Of a stretch of DNA of 64,000 nucleotides, positions 56,231 to 58,981 are shown one piece after another; the first letter of the stretch is position 1, and each line of letters starts with the position of its first letter. The notes beneath the pieces are model-generated. The model made no database searches. It had not been told where the DNA came from and worked only from the letters and a program-made list of their open reading frames with translations. The position numbers and the translations under genes were made by a program. The stretch spans positions 15,301 through 79,300 of the forward strand of contig CAZQWS010000003.1 in assembly GCA_964597355.1 (NCBI GenBank), written 5' to 3'. This DNA is from an uncultured Bdellovibrionales bacterium (lineage in GTDB: Bacteria > Patescibacteriota > Minisyncoccia > Moranbacterales > UBA1568).

Positions 56231-57370
56231 TTATTTCAGTCTGAATTTCAACGCCCGCATCACGTTCCACCCTCTCCCCCACTTCATCATCCCCTGGTAT
56301 GAAGTTAGTATTTCAAGCTCCCCTGACTTCGAGGCTATCTTTCGGAGCATCCTCCGCTTCGTCACCGTCCGTAACACTCGATGGCAGGGGAAATGCACCC
56401 AACCCAAGAAATCCACTCCACTCCCCAGGGTCTCAATCGAGACTTTGTTCGGATGGAGATCAAGACTGAGCCTCAGCTTGAGGAAAGCTTGGATTTTGGT
56501 GAGCAAGGTTTCAAGCTCTTGCTTGCTTTGTGACAACACTACAAAATCATCTGCATAGCGAATGTAATACTTCACTCTGAGTACATGTTTCACAAACTGG
56601 TCAAATTCATTCAGGTAGATATTCATCAGGAGTTGCGAAGTCAGATTGCCCAGAGGTAGTCCCTTCCCCTTGTCATCCCGAGCGCAGTCCCCGCCTGCCG
56701 GACGGGCAGGAAGAGATCCTGACTGGAAGCTGTACACGACTTGTCCAAGAAGCCATAAAATATCCGAGTCTTCAATCCATTCCTCAAGCATCCGTAAGAG
56801 AATCTCCTGATCAATACTGGCAAAGAACTTTCGGATATCACATTTCAAGACAAAGCATTGCTTAGTATAGTTCTTCGAGATTTTTCTTGAGAAGGTTTCA
56901 AATCTGAGTAAAGATTTATGGACTCCCTTGCCATCCTGACAAGAGTAAGAGTCCTGGATGAAACGTCTGAAAAAGGATGGCGAGAGGGCTCTATAGAGGA
57001 GGTGATGCAGCACCCTATCTCTCACGCTCGCTTTGTGAATGTCTCGTGGCTTGGGGTCATTGATCTTGAAAGCCTGATAGGGACCGTGAGTATATGTTTT
57101 CGTCTTGAGAGACTCATGGAGATCAATGAGATGATCCATGAGATGCAGCTCAAACTCCTGGACGTCTTTTTTCTGTTGCTTGCCTTTTCGGAAATTTTTC
57201 CAGGCCAAGAGGAGATTCTCGAGTGATATAATCTCTTGGTAACTGACGATAAATTTTGTTTTTCCCTTATGACCCAGACCCCCCCCGCAGGAATCTTGTC
57301 TTTGACCCAGAAGTTCAAGGCGCTCTACCGATCGTGGCAAGCTATCGTGCTCCATATTCCCAAAGTTCAT
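56231..57370 (-). CDS. DGR reverse transcriptase
   Basis: RT motifs in order: 1 'LENLLLAWKNFRKGK', 2 'PRDIHKASVRDRVLHHLLYRAL', 3 'VLKCDIRKFFASIDQ', 4 'GLPLGNLTSQLLMNIYLNEFD', 5 'YIRYADDFVV' (rc of atcatctgcata at about 56538-56549). Motif 4 has the DGR-specific [I/L]GxxxSQ in place of QGxxxSP. Confidence 0.85.
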   Translation of the reverse strand: MNFGNMEHDSLPRSVERLELLGQRQDSCGGGLGHKGKTKFIVSYQEIISLENLLLAWKNFRKGKQQKKDVQEFELHLMDHLIDLHESLKTKTYTHGPYQAFKINDPKPRDIHKASVRDRVLHHLLYRALSPSFFRRFIQDSYSCQDGKGVHKSLLRFETFSRKISKNYTKQCFVLKCDIRKFFASIDQEILLRMLEEWIEDSDILWLLGQVVYSFQSGSLPARPAGGDCARDDKGKGLPLGNLTSQLLMNIYLNEFDQFVKHVLRVKYYIRYADDFVVLSQSKQELETLLTKIQAFLKLRLSLDLHPNKVSIETLGSGVDFLGWVHFPCHRVLRTVTKRRMLRKIASKSGELEILTSYQGMMKWGRGWNVMRALKFRLK

Positions 57371-57658
57371 CGATATACATTTGGTAGTAAAATTGATACC
57401 CTCTTTCTCGAAATGCTTGAAATCCTGTTTCGAGCCCAGTATGCGAGGATGGAAACCAAATTACAGTACCTGGTAGCCGCCATCAGTAAACTCGATCTCC
57501 TCAAGTTCTTCCTCCAAATCGGTTGGGAAAACCAACTCATCGATACCAAACAATACACCAAACTCTCGGAAGATATGAGTGAGGTAGGGAGAATGCTTGG
57601 CGGCTGGAAAAAAGGCCTGGAAACAAAACTCTCACCGAAGGAGGTAAGAGAAACGTAA
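57269..57658 (+). CDS. avd: Avd-like accessory variability determinant (four-helix-bundle protein), opposite strand to RT/TR/target
   Basis: 129 aa, translated directly from the plus strand. '...HIPKVHRYTFGSKIDTLFLEMLEILFRAQ...LLKFFLQIGWENQLIDTKQYTKLSEDMSEVGRMLGGWKKGL' parallels Bordetella phage Avd as I recall it. Similar size to Avd. Its 5' end overlaps the RT ORF by about 100 nt. Confidence 0.65.
   Translation: MTQTPPAGILSLTQKFKALYRSWQAIVLHIPKVHRYTFGSKIDTLFLEMLEILFRAQYARMETKLQYLVAAISKLDLLKFFLQIGWENQLIDTKQYTKLSEDMSEVGRMLGGWKKGLETKLSPKEVRET
57279..57286. repeat. C8/G8 homopolymer inside the avd/RT overlap
   Basis: gacc cccccc gcagg: eight C on plus. It encodes T-P-P-A in avd and G-G-G in the RT N-terminus. 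Confidence 0.85.
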
Positions 57659-57667
57659 AGAAAGTAG

Positions 57668-57779
57668 CGGAGAAAGAACCTGGTCCCCGGCATTCCACTG
57701 GCCATTCTCGTCGAGCTTCCAATCGTTGACGTTCCACTTGTGGTTATCGGCGTTCCAGTAGAAGTTGACCGTGAAAATT
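57668..57779 (-). repeat. DGR template repeat (TR), 112 bp
   Basis: Aligns to 58151-58262 without gaps. All 16 mismatches are plus-strand T, i.e. minus-strand A, in this copy. In the target frame it would encode IFTVNFYWNADNHKWNVNDWKLDENGQWNAGDQVLSP, rich in AAC/AAT. Confidence 0.85.
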
Positions 57780-58129: not shown

Positions 58130-58764
58130 CTAGCGTGCCTGAGAGTTGGCCGGAGAAAGAACCTGGTCCCCGGCAGGCCACAGGCCACGCTCGCCGAGCT
58201 TCCAAGCGTCGACGTCCCACTCGTGGCTAACGGCGTCCCAGCAGAAGTTGACCGCGAAAACTTCGCCATTCACCCCCACCAAGTACATCAGGAAGTAACC
58301 CGGCATACCGTTGGGGTGGAGATCGATCAGGGAGATGATGTCCTCCCACTGGCCCAAGAAGGGCTTGATGAGTTCGGTCTGAATGACGCTATCGAACGCC
58401 GACCGCTGAAGCTCGTCGTTGTGGTAGACGCGCTCCGGTGCCGCTTCCACCGGCTTGAGGGCTGGCAGGATCCGCTCTCGGAAGGAGGGCGAGACCCAGA
58501 GACCCGGGCGTTCGGCAAAGGCTTGCGTCGGATCCGTCGACTGAGTGCGAGCCGGCAGCTTGATGGGAGATAGCTGCTTGAGAAGCGGTACGGGGACGAT
58601 TTGGGATCGGCCAGCGAGTAGCTCACCAAGCTGGAAGCAAAACTCTCTGTTTTGAGGGTTATCCTTGGCGAGGCGGCTCAGCAGCTTGGCTGCAGTTTCA
58701 CCGTGTTCGTCAGGAACAAACATAGCTGCTTTCGTGATCATCCCCACTGTTGCATTACTGGACA
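58130..58764 (-). CDS. DGR target (variable) protein with C-terminal C-type-lectin-like VR
   Basis: ORF open to 58822 (GTG). The best start is the ATG at 58762-58764, preceded by AGGAGA at -6 (MSSNATVGMITK...). C-terminal 37 aa are encoded by the VR. No signal peptide. GC about 62-68%. Confidence 0.7.
58151..58262 (-). repeat. DGR variable repeat (VR) at 3' end of target gene
   Basis: Encodes ...FAVNFCWDAVSHEWDVDAWKLGERGLWPAGDQVLSP. The 25 bp at the transcript-3' end (58151-58175) are identical to TR and GC-rich (tGCCGGGGACCAGGttctttctccg), which is IMH-like. Confidence 0.85.
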
Positions 58765-58981
58765 TGTCTTTCTCCTGTTTGGAGCGAGCTGTACGGCATT
58801 GACCAGACATTGGTTTCACCACAGCCCCTCACCTTTCTCTATGATTCTTGATCACCTCAAGAAATAACTACACAAATTCGTACGGTCGAGCAGAATTGTG
58901 CAGTATGCCTCTTACAAAGATTGATTGCGGAAGAGAAAAATAAGGGGCTATGGCAAAACTCTAGATTTTTAATGAACTAAT

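Follow-up and report, generated by a model that had tools for sequence, protein, structure and literature searches.

A hypervariable simple-sequence tract at the avd/RT junction of Patescibacteria diversity-generating retroelements: a candidate phase-variation switch

The natural control of diversity-generating retroelement (DGR) activity is, to our knowledge, largely unexplained, and CPR bacteria carry many DGRs. In the DGR of Bordetella phage BPP-1 we know of no homopolymer switch. Contingency loci, as found in Neisseria, Haemophilus and Campylobacter, carry repeats with units of one, two, four or seven nucleotides, placed close behind a start codon or in a promoter, and a change in the length of the repeat shifts either the reading frame or the promoter spacing. 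Examples of this are the poly-G tracts within ORFs of C. jejuni and, among promoters, the poly-G spacer in that of meningococcal porA and the (TA)n repeat where the divergent hifA and hifB promoters of H. influenzae overlap.

Among DGRs, the B3 gene order, TR-(avd)-RT with avd reversed, is reported for 90% of CPR DGRs and is nearly absent elsewhere (Wu et al., 2018, Nucleic Acids Res 46:11, PMC5758913). We saw no reference to a simple repeat between avd and RT in the gene-order account of that paper. Searching the DGR literature for phase variation, homopolymers, repeats and contingency did not bring up the tract either, and an earlier mention is possible in Paul et al. (2017, Nature Microbiology). 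We found no earlier description of a phase-variation switch on a DGR; the antisense avd of B3 elements is already published.

The DNA analysed here, referred to as the window, is a stretch of 64,000 nt from contig CAZQWS010000003.1. It contains an ordinary CPR-type (B3) DGR of Patescibacteria, with the following features.

58130–58822, minus strand: DGR target gene (230 aa), which holds the VR at its 3' end
58151–58260, minus strand: variable repeat (VR), at the 3' end of the target ORF
57668–57777, minus strand: template repeat (TR), a 110-nt direct repeat of the VR
57629–57650, minus strand: 8-bp hairpin, CUCUUACC-UCCUUC-GGUGAGAG followed by UUUUGUUU, a terminator-like match
57269–57658, plus strand: avd, 129 aa from ATG 57269, with a Pfam bAvd match
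57279–57286, both strands: C8 (plus) / G8 (minus) homopolymer, the window copy of a clade-wide hypervariable simple-sequence tract
57275–57277, minus strand: CTG at RT residue 32, where the closest relatives have the RT start ATG (alignment with L093)
57224–57232, plus strand: extended -10-like motif TGATATAAT, a candidate avd promoter read from the sequence
56231–57370, minus strand: maximal RT ORF (379 aa), with an RVT_1 match

Along the element the order is target/VR, TR, antisense avd and RT, with avd and RT head to head. The TR and VR differ at 15 positions, every one of them at an adenine of the TR (minus strand), as is characteristic of a DGR. The closest homologues of the RT (54–74% identical) adjoin Avd genes and TR/VR pairs in Patescibacteria, and on this basis, with its RVT_1 match, we assign it to the DGR RTs; the Avd accessory protein is present, its bAvd match being above the gathering cut-off. 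The end of the TR at 57668 (minus), avd at 57269–57658 (plus) and the RT running from 57370 or 57277 to 56231 (minus) give the B3 arrangement, and the order and strands are the same as those described for B3 DGRs (Wu et al., 2018). The preliminary description had presented the antisense avd as a departure from canonical DGRs; it is instead the published rule for CPR elements (PMC5758913, where B3 makes up 90% of them), and avd was antisense in essentially all of the loci that we compared, the sole exception seen being L075. The 230-aa target ORF had no match among Pfam or NCBIfam profiles.

The hairpin lies 18 nt 3' of the TR on the TR/RT strand, within the antisense of the avd 3' end, and its stem is also predicted in the fold of 57680–57560 (fold z-score -2.6). 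Stem-loops directly 3' of the TR have been described (Handa et al., bioRxiv 10.1101/2023.10.23.563531). The predicted structure may serve to terminate the TR RNA, or it may correspond to the stem-loop that Avd binds in the DGR RNA of the Bordetella phage.

The identity of avd is well supported. Its product scores 60.4 bits (E=2.8e-16) against Pfam bAvd PF22296, for which the gathering cut-off is 40, and 71.5 bits against NCBIfam DivGenRetAVD, just below the model cut-off of 80. These matches exclude a chance antisense ORF and, with the coordinates, bear out the claim that an Avd gene lies on the opposite strand with the tract in its first codons. The family profile begins at residue 10, whereas the tract forms codons 4–6, and no stop codon interrupts the frame that runs from ATG 57269 across the tract and on to the conserved LxLTQKFKALY helix. 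The C8 of the window would thus place avd in frame, that is, in the ON state. The motif TGATATAAT, within the Ile-Ile-Ser codons of the RT and 36 nt 5' of the avd ATG, is put forward as an avd promoter from its sequence only; a two-hexamer -35/-10 promoter scan of the window returned no pair in the avd/RT junction region.

The C8/G8 tract is not a chance feature. It is the sole G/C run of at least 8 nt in the 64-kb window, the remainder being one C7 and four 6-mers. On the plus strand it is read as ACC CCC CCC (Thr-Pro-Pro) and on the minus strand ORF as ggg ggg ggt (Gly-Gly-Gly), so that what had been said of its sequence, a C8 at 57279–57286 coding Pro-Pro in avd and Gly-Gly-Gly in the RT ORF, is accurate throughout. 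The one other assembly of the locus, made separately (L001, Logan SRR33452761), also has G8, and differs from the window by one substitution and one indel, both away from the tract. With the tract forming avd codons 4–6, a change in its length alters the Avd product: adding or removing 1 nt in silico cuts Avd to 11–39 aa, and cuts the RT read from ATG 57370 to 33–116 aa.

The same junction position is occupied by a simple repeat in nearly all of the related Patescibacteria DGRs, about 70 of them. In 61 of 71 related loci this is poly-G (G6 in three, G7 in three, G8 in eight, G9 in 18, G10 in 17, G11 in nine, G13 in two and G14 in one), and the remaining loci carry (GGCT)n, (TGATTGC)n, (GA)n or (GT)n at the same place. 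No unit length is a multiple of 3, and all of the repeat types are G-rich on the RT strand. The repeat is kept beyond what mutation alone would produce: G/C runs of at least 7 nt number 58 in 9 kb of junction windows and 3 in 390 kb of flanks, an enrichment of about 800-fold, and five different units occur at the one site. Because four unrelated units replace the G-run, selection appears to act on repetitiveness rather than on a sequence motif. Units can differ even between loci whose RT genes are 76% identical in DNA (L019 and L022), and copy number differs between L026 and L039, which are 86% identical. A metagenome contig search with the tract flanks and a variable gap found no additional locus.

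In 70 of 71 loci there is a register of the tract, usually just one, in which a frame begun at an ATG crosses the tract and continues into Avd. The assembled lengths are not enriched for that register: 32 of 71 loci are in frame with an ATG as they stand, compared with 26 and 27 after shifts of +1 and +2 units. That the tract is coding therefore cannot be shown from frame statistics, and the lack of enrichment is what one would expect of a tract outside the true coding sequence of avd. Where repeats are short or absent, 6/9 loci are in frame with an upstream ATG, as against 29/75 for long tracts, which is a trend only (p=0.15). Among the related loci no avd start codon was found to be conserved from the tract to the LLPVL helix. 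The Leu codon that precedes the Pro of this helix is, by our tally, a non-start codon in well over half of the loci, most often TTA or CTA.

Between near-identical genomes the assembled tract varies in length. In three of four populations with identical RT proteins it differs by 1 nt, as judged between consensus assemblies, some of them at 4–9x coverage, for which Illumina indel error at G9–G11 is possible. The P0036 population has G10 (L097, L098) and G11 (L099, L100), and in P0071, with G9 (L106, L109) and G10 (L107, L108), the tract is the sole difference between L106 and L108 over about 1.9 kb. In the Hainich population P0051, L103 has G10 and L101 has G11, L102 has a gap of Ns, and in L104 the tract is deleted; here the G10/G11 difference goes with different VR sequences and so fits two real haplotypes.

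These single-nucleotide differences change the reading frame. In two populations G10 corresponds to a full-length Avd (133 aa, N-terminus MVTPPPQFSQANLIPVV, from an ATG 4 nt before the tract) and G11 to a truncated one, only a 118–120 aa ORF from an internal GTG being left. Out-of-frame tract states keep such 118–120 aa ORFs, starting at an internal GTG or TTG and matching bAvd, and judging from their sequence these might be functional. In P0071, as we read the data, neither G9 nor G10 brings avd into frame with the nearest ATG. The population of Vogelbacteria from Rifle showed no variation in tract length across its 10 assemblies: all tracts are of 10 nt, with G10 in eight, a G-to-T change inside the run in L087 and a T-to-A change just after the run in L086. 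With G10, avd is not in frame with the one ATG that lies upstream in this population, and 25 of the 36 variable sites of the population fall in the VR. As the VR differs between samples, the Rifle DGR appears to be active in a consensus-OFF state.

On the RT side of the tract, a promoter-like geometry recurs in the relatives, where the typical sequence 3' of the tract on the RT strand is TAnnnT-N7-ATG(RT). In 34 of 68 loci the tract is immediately followed by TAnnnT, compared with a background of 1.7% per position, and the RT ATG is at +14 in 28 of 68. The tract thus lies in avd codons 4–7 and, because this arrangement typically follows it, at the edge of a likely RT promoter, with TAnnnT as its putative -10 element. 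Upstream of the tract we found no convincing -35 element in the relatives, and none at a fixed distance; all that is conserved there is the A-rich antisense of Leu-Leu-Pro codons. The G-run was rejected as a Shine-Dalgarno sequence for the RT; 13 nt separate its end from the ATG, too great a distance, and the gap consists of the TAnnnT and 7 nt. Most genes in the window are without a Shine-Dalgarno sequence and several have TAnnnT 6–8 nt before the start codon, and for these reasons leaderless expression is plausible in the window organism. In L055 two further G10 tracts each precede a -10-like box and the ATG of another gene, and these genes have no antisense avd.

The start of the RT determines whether the tract is read on both strands. 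Sequence conservation in the RT begins near codons 40–44 (Tyr44 is at 57241), and the best 120 of 8000 homologues align only from about residue 35–40 onward. Among the poly-G relatives an RT ATG lies between the tract and the conserved N-terminal motif in 42 of 61, most commonly exactly 13 nt from the tract. In the window this interval contains no ATG, GTG or TTG; the homologous site is the CTG at 57277 (CTG GGT CAT AAG, aligned with ATG AGA CAT AGA in L093), and the 31 residues of the RT ORF before it are mere antisense of the avd N-terminus. Lacking the clade-typical -10 box and ATG, the RT of the window would start either at this CTG, in which case the overlap would be 9 nt and the RT coding sequence would not include the tract, or further upstream at an ATG or TTG, with the tract read as Gly-Gly-Gly.

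The two ORFs do overlap at 57269–57370, the avd ATG being the reverse complement of RT codon 34 (cat). About 100 bp of dual coding had been proposed on this basis; that proposal presumes translation from ATG 57370 and is doubtful, because most relatives start the RT 13 nt downstream of the tract. The idea that a slip would break both genes at once likewise presumes an RT translated through the tract: a change of 1 nt in silico does truncate both ORFs, the RT being read from ATG 57370.

On the comparative sequence evidence, we consider the tract to be, on balance, probably a phase-variation switch (heritable on/off or tuning) on the mutagenic DGR, and this is the most likely reading. With the length differences taken as biological rather than technical, replication slippage would alter the length of the tract, which would sit after the avd start codon and ahead of the first Avd helix, with Avd translated from upstream of it. 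A change by other than a multiple of 3 would move the Avd body out of the frame of its ATG. In most of the relatives, where the tract abuts a -10-like TAnnnT 7 nt before the RT ATG, its length may also set the geometry of the RT promoter. The outcome would be a heritable, reversible and stochastic gating or tuning of mutagenic retrohoming in subpopulations, so that switching would control DGR activity. The preliminary description had guessed at an on/off switch; that guess gains strong comparative support from the clade-wide repeat, the length differences and the change of frame, but not from an enrichment of in-frame states. A more elaborate form, which we hold tentatively and at somewhat below even chances, is a bidirectional switch that sets the avd frame and the leaderless RT promoter geometry together. 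It would let a shifting minority diversify the target as a form of bet-hedging, and it would have evolved repeatedly with different units.

The alternatives differ in what the tract would be part of. If the RT were translated from ATG 57370, ATG 57355 or TTG 57340 through the tract, one slip would kill both avd and RT. The absence of a canonical downstream start in the window speaks for this, as do the RT frame that is open across the tract up to the upstream ATGs, the truncation of both ORFs by 1-nt changes, and an upstream ATG in 5 of the 13 loci without a downstream start (the window counted). We nevertheless think it rather unlikely, given the downstream RT start in 42 of 61 poly-G relatives and the homology of CTG 57277 to their ATG; moreover, the N-terminal extension is unaligned with homologues except where it mirrors conserved avd codons, and by a rough estimate it is nothing out of the ordinary for some 35 antisense codons to be free of stops. 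Less probable again, and in our judgement unlikely, is that the tract is a promoter element only, forming the upstream or spacer part of an RT promoter (Gn-TAnnnT-N7-ATG, with a leaderless RT mRNA). On that account avd would start downstream at a TTG, GTG or other weak start, the Pro codons would be incidental, and tract length would at most tune RT transcription. Consistent with it are the fixed spacing after the tract (TAnnnT at +1 in 34/68 and ATG at +14 in 28/68), the two L055 tracts before boxes and ATGs without an antisense avd, the plausibility of leaderless expression, the seemingly random frame of avd relative to upstream ATGs, and a DGR that looks active where avd is out of frame with the upstream ATG. 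However, there is no conserved start codon from the tract to the first Avd helix and no -35-like element at a fixed upstream distance, repeats such as (GGCT)n and (TGATTGC)n, at 26–78 nt, are too long for a 17-nt promoter spacer, and the window itself is without the -10-like box and the ATG.

It is very unlikely, in our view, that the tract has no switching role at all, being either a hotspot of neutral slippage or an element of non-B-DNA or RNA structure that is kept for another reason, with length differences that are sequencing or assembly noise. The locus had been flagged as a possible assembly-prone site, and this is correct, since the relatives show scaffold gaps, contig ends and one deletion at the tract; several contigs have low coverage, the modal length is 9–10 regardless of frame, and the G-rich RT strand of every repeat type could mean a strand-specific structural role. 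Against this stand the enrichment of about 800-fold at one position across lineages with RTs only 55–60% identical, in compact genomes otherwise nearly free of such runs, and the replacement of the G-run by four unrelated units at the same site. The Hainich G10/G11 pair also differs in its VR, as two real haplotypes would.

If the tract gates Avd, and perhaps the RT, in almost all of the dominant CPR DGR lineage, it would offer an ON/OFF proxy that can be read from sequence in metagenomes. The phase-variation reading would also account for the frequent truncated avd and N-terminally extended RT gene calls and for the assembly breaks at this position. Contingency loci and retroelement-driven diversification, two classic routes of localised hypermutation, would be joined in one cassette, and targeted hypermutation in Patescibacteria would itself be gated by a second hypermutable device.

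The closest known systems resemble the locus in different ways. The BPP-1 DGR (mtd-avd-TR-brt, B1) shares with the window A-specific TR-to-VR mismatches, an Avd, an RT and a stem-loop after the TR, and the component types are the same: a four-helix-bundle Avd protein and a group-II-intron-like RT. It is unlike the window in that avd is co-directional and upstream of the TR, the last 20 nt of avd being within the DGR RNA. In the window avd lies antisense between TR and RT, and the RNA that follows the TR is therefore antisense to the 3' portion of avd. Frameshifted genes can be rescued by transcriptional slippage on long homopolymers, for example in insect endosymbionts, and by analogy a run of 8–14 C in the mRNA could yield some in-frame avd transcripts. 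This could explain the activity of the Rifle DGR with a consensus-OFF avd, in which case the tract would be an expression dimmer rather than a DNA-level switch. Contingency loci match the junction tract in position, repeat types, 1-nt polymorphism (for the tract, between consensus assemblies) and frame consequence; they differ in that they govern surface structures, whereas the tract described here would govern a hypermutation accessory factor in uncultivated Patescibacteria known from assemblies.

The element in the window is a bona fide diversity-generating retroelement (DGR) on the minus strand, and its template repeat (TR) and variable repeat (VR) differ at 15 positions, all 15 of them at TR adenines.

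57269-57658, plus strand: accessory gene (avd) ORF, with ATG at 57269 followed by ACC CAG ACC CCC CCC GCA
57370 to 56231, minus strand: reverse transcriptase (RT) ORF, read from the ATG at 57370, with an RVT_1 match
57777-57668, minus strand: TR, forming a repeat pair with the VR
58260-58151, minus strand: VR, at the 3' end of the target ORF
58822-58130, minus strand: target ORF of 230 aa, ending with the VR
57629-57650, minus strand: 8-bp hairpin with UUUUGUUU after it, in antisense within the 3' end of avd and 18 nt downstream of the TR
57224-57232, plus strand: candidate avd promoter TGATATAAT, predicted from the sequence, inside the Ile-Ile-Ser codons of the RT

Re-reading the sequence confirmed the preliminary description of an avd ORF antisense to the RT ORF, with a C8/G8 tract (57279-57286) in their overlap. 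The plus-strand ORF is indeed Avd: Pfam bAvd PF22296 matches it with 60.4 bits (E=2.8e-16), exceeding the gathering cut-off of 40, and the NCBIfam DivGenRetAVD equivalog with 71.5 bits, slightly under that model's cut-off of 80; the profile match starts at Avd residue 10. On the RT strand the complement of the C-run forms codons 29-31 (ggg ggg ggt) and that of the avd ATG forms codon 34 (cat). This C8 is the only G/C homopolymer of at least 8 nt in the 64-kb window. Changing its length in silico by 1 nt, in either direction, cuts Avd to 11-39 aa and the RT read from 57370 to 33-116 aa.

The tract is also G8 in L001, a separately assembled contig of the same locus that departs from the window at one substitution and one indel outside the tract. 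Near its position 1123 (window position about 56342) L001 has GAAG where the window has GAAAG, which frameshifts the RT C-terminus (344 aa vs 379 aa). The family consensus agrees with the RT frame of the window, not that of L001, which carries either a defective-RT variant or an assembly error. The 230-aa target protein has no match in Pfam or NCBIfam. The hairpin may be a terminator of the TR RNA, in which case a separate RT promoter would be implied, or it may instead match the Avd-binding stem-loop that follows the TR in Bordetella phage DGR RNA.

The antisense avd had been presented as non-canonical, but this arrangement is already published. As defined by Wu et al. (2018; PMC5758913), architecture B3 is TR-(avd)-RT, the parentheses marking the reverse strand; they report it in 90% of their CPR set and describe it as nearly absent elsewhere. 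We compared 80 Patescibacteria loci encoding relatives of the window's RT, together with several metagenome contigs. Among the loci whose sequence extends upstream of the RT, essentially all have avd as the immediate upstream neighbour, on the opposite strand (L075 is the sole exception seen), so an antisense avd is ordinary for this lineage rather than peculiar to the window. The window cassette is thus a member of the DGR family with the B3 architecture.

When junctions were aligned on the RT motif and tract lengths read on the RT strand, a poly-G run was found 30-60 nt upstream of the motif in almost every locus (G6 x3, G7 x3, G8 x8, G9 x18, G10 x17, G11 x9, G13 x2, G14 x1). Its place can be taken by (GGCT)n (L019, L026, L039), (TGATTGC)11 (L022), (GA)n (L047, L059, L078, L079) or (GT)16 (L073), and none of the junction repeat units has a length that is a multiple of three. 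G/C runs of at least 7 nt number 58 in the 120-nt junction windows (75 loci, 9 kb), compared with 3 in 390 kb of flanks. Repeats can differ between related loci: L019 and L022 have different units, L026 and L039 different copy numbers, and L054 (G9) and L064 (G13) different tract lengths. Scaffold gaps or contig ends fall exactly at the tract in L074, L080, L102 and L110. We regard it as almost certain that the tract is a repeat hotspot which is conserved and under selection. All junction repeat types (G, GA, GT, GGCT, TGATTGC) are G-rich on the RT strand and C-rich on the avd strand, which could be due to shared ancestry, a strand-specific function or slippage bias.

The assembled tract length also varies within populations. 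Population contigs were selected for encoding exactly the same RT protein, and because its called start is downstream of the tract this look-up is unbiased by tract length.

P0111 (Rifle Vogelbacteria): 10-nt tract in 10/10 assemblies
P0036 (JGI series): G10 in two contigs, G11 in two
P0051 (Hainich H43 replicates): G10, G11, a gap of Ns, and tract deleted
P0071 (Rifle): G9 in two contigs, G10 in two, and one contig beginning at the tract

Flanks are identical or nearly so between length variants. The tract is the sole difference between L106 and L108 over 741 + 1196 nt. Between L101 (G11) and L103 (G10) there are 13 further differing sites, about 890-970 nt upstream in the region of the VR. 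At G10, P0036 and P0051 encode an Avd of 133 aa starting MVTPPPQ or MATPPPQ, with the ATG 4 nt before the tract; at G11, gene callers give only an ORF of 118-120 aa with an internal GTG start. This pattern is as slipped-strand phase variation predicts, and also as expected from consensus error at a low-coverage G10-11 run. In L104, the Hainich H43 replicate with the deletion, the tract and a few flanking bases (about 16-17 nt) are absent relative to L101 and L103, joining gagagaac to cataaagg, with no other difference. Either the deletion is genuine and this variant lacks the putative switch, or the assembly collapsed here. Within P0111, L087 has a G-to-T change inside the tract and L086 a T-to-A change just past it. 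Across nine near-identical assemblies among L083-L092 of this population, the VR (locus positions 460-554) holds 25 of the 36 variable sites over 4 kb, and this concentration of differences in the VR is direct evidence of ongoing diversification between samples.

Several observations argue that the tract is coding in avd. In the Avd frame it always encodes Pro2-4, 1-8 codons ahead of the conserved LLPVLxKLK..Y helix, and no conserved start codon lies between tract and helix among the aligned loci. In 70 of 71 loci Avd can be linked to an upstream ATG by some tract register, short or degenerate tracts are in frame in 6/9 loci, and we read the heptamer repeat as lacking a stop codon in the avd sense while having one in the RT sense. 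Against this, 32/71 loci are in frame compared with 26-27 in frame-shifted controls, both lengths observed in P0071 are out of frame with the nearest ATG, and the constant 10-nt tract of the Rifle Vogelbacteria leaves the consensus avd out of register with the upstream ATG although the VR varies between samples. Fast switching with a mutational equilibrium near 9-10 could reconcile these facts, as could transcriptional slippage on the C-run or the use of an internal avd start.

The coding overlap of about 100 bp proposed for avd and the RT stands as a pair of ORFs, the frame in the window being open through the tract to an upstream ATG, but its translation on both strands is doubtful, as in 42/61 poly-G loci an RT-frame ATG occurs after the tract and ahead of the conserved Y..IIS.ENLL motif. 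Among the best 120 of 8000 RT homologues, alignment to the window's RT begins only at about residue 35-40, and many have a Met start four codons past a conserved Gly-Gly-Gly (in DNA, G-run, 13 nt, ATG). In 13/61 poly-G loci, the window included, there is no canonical start between tract and motif, and in five of these, again including the window, an upstream ATG can be reached in open frame across the tract. Closest to the window are L093, L094 and L096, which read G8-9 + TAnnnT + 7 nt + ATG, while the window reads G8 + T + CTG GGT CAT AAG, its CTG aligning with the ATG of L093 (ATG AGA CAT AGA). Given this alignment and the lack of a canonical start after the tract, the window's RT would start at CTG 57277 or upstream at 57370, 57355 or 57340. 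A start at the CTG would leave 9 nt shared with avd and place the tract outside the RT coding sequence; with an upstream start, the dual-coding picture holds. That the upstream extension resembles some homologues does not count as separate evidence, because its codons are aligned, in antisense, with those of conserved avd residues.

TAnnnT immediately follows the tract in 34/68 loci (background 1.7% per position); in 28/68 the RT ATG is at +14 from the tract, and 23 loci have both. Leaderless mRNAs have this geometry, with a -10 box 7 nt ahead of the start codon, and with this spacing the tract is probably the upstream edge or spacer of a candidate RT promoter. Since no convincing -35 element was found in the window or its relatives, a spacing-dependent transcriptional switch is something we can only infer. 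The promoter-like module of the window itself is degenerate, with TCTGGG in place of TAnnnT and no ATG.

Only about 7/51 window ORFs of at least 200 aa (starts uncurated) have a Shine-Dalgarno-like motif before the first start codon, and several long ones have TAnnnT 6-8 nt upstream instead, which hints that this genome relies heavily on SD-less or leaderless translation. Two of the three flank G/C runs of at least 7 nt are G10 tracts in L055 (3404-3413 and 5253-5262), outside the avd/RT junction. In both cases a -10-like box (TATAAT, TGATAT) comes next, with an ATG 6 nt further on. One tract stands before a small hydrophobic ORF that lies just downstream of the RT; the other, which follows a terminator-like hairpin, stands before the gene for an Avd-like four-helix bundle. 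Together they suggest that this organism has a reusable poly-G + -10 promoter module.

The preliminary idea of an on/off switch has gained from the clade-wide repeat site, the length polymorphism and the effect on frame, but in-frame states are not enriched. On balance, these comparisons lean slightly towards a role for the tract in switching DGR activity by phase variation or in tuning it. The tract is undescribed in the DGR literature searched in full text for phase variation, homopolymer, simple-sequence repeat and contingency, a coverage that leaves out the main CPR DGR paper (Paul et al., 2017). The locus thus pairs an established retroelement architecture with a putative hypermutable control element that appears not to have been described before. 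Simple-sequence contingency loci are defined by high-frequency reversible switching within a lineage, and it is those of Neisseria, Haemophilus and Campylobacter that the tract would appear to resemble in its behaviour.
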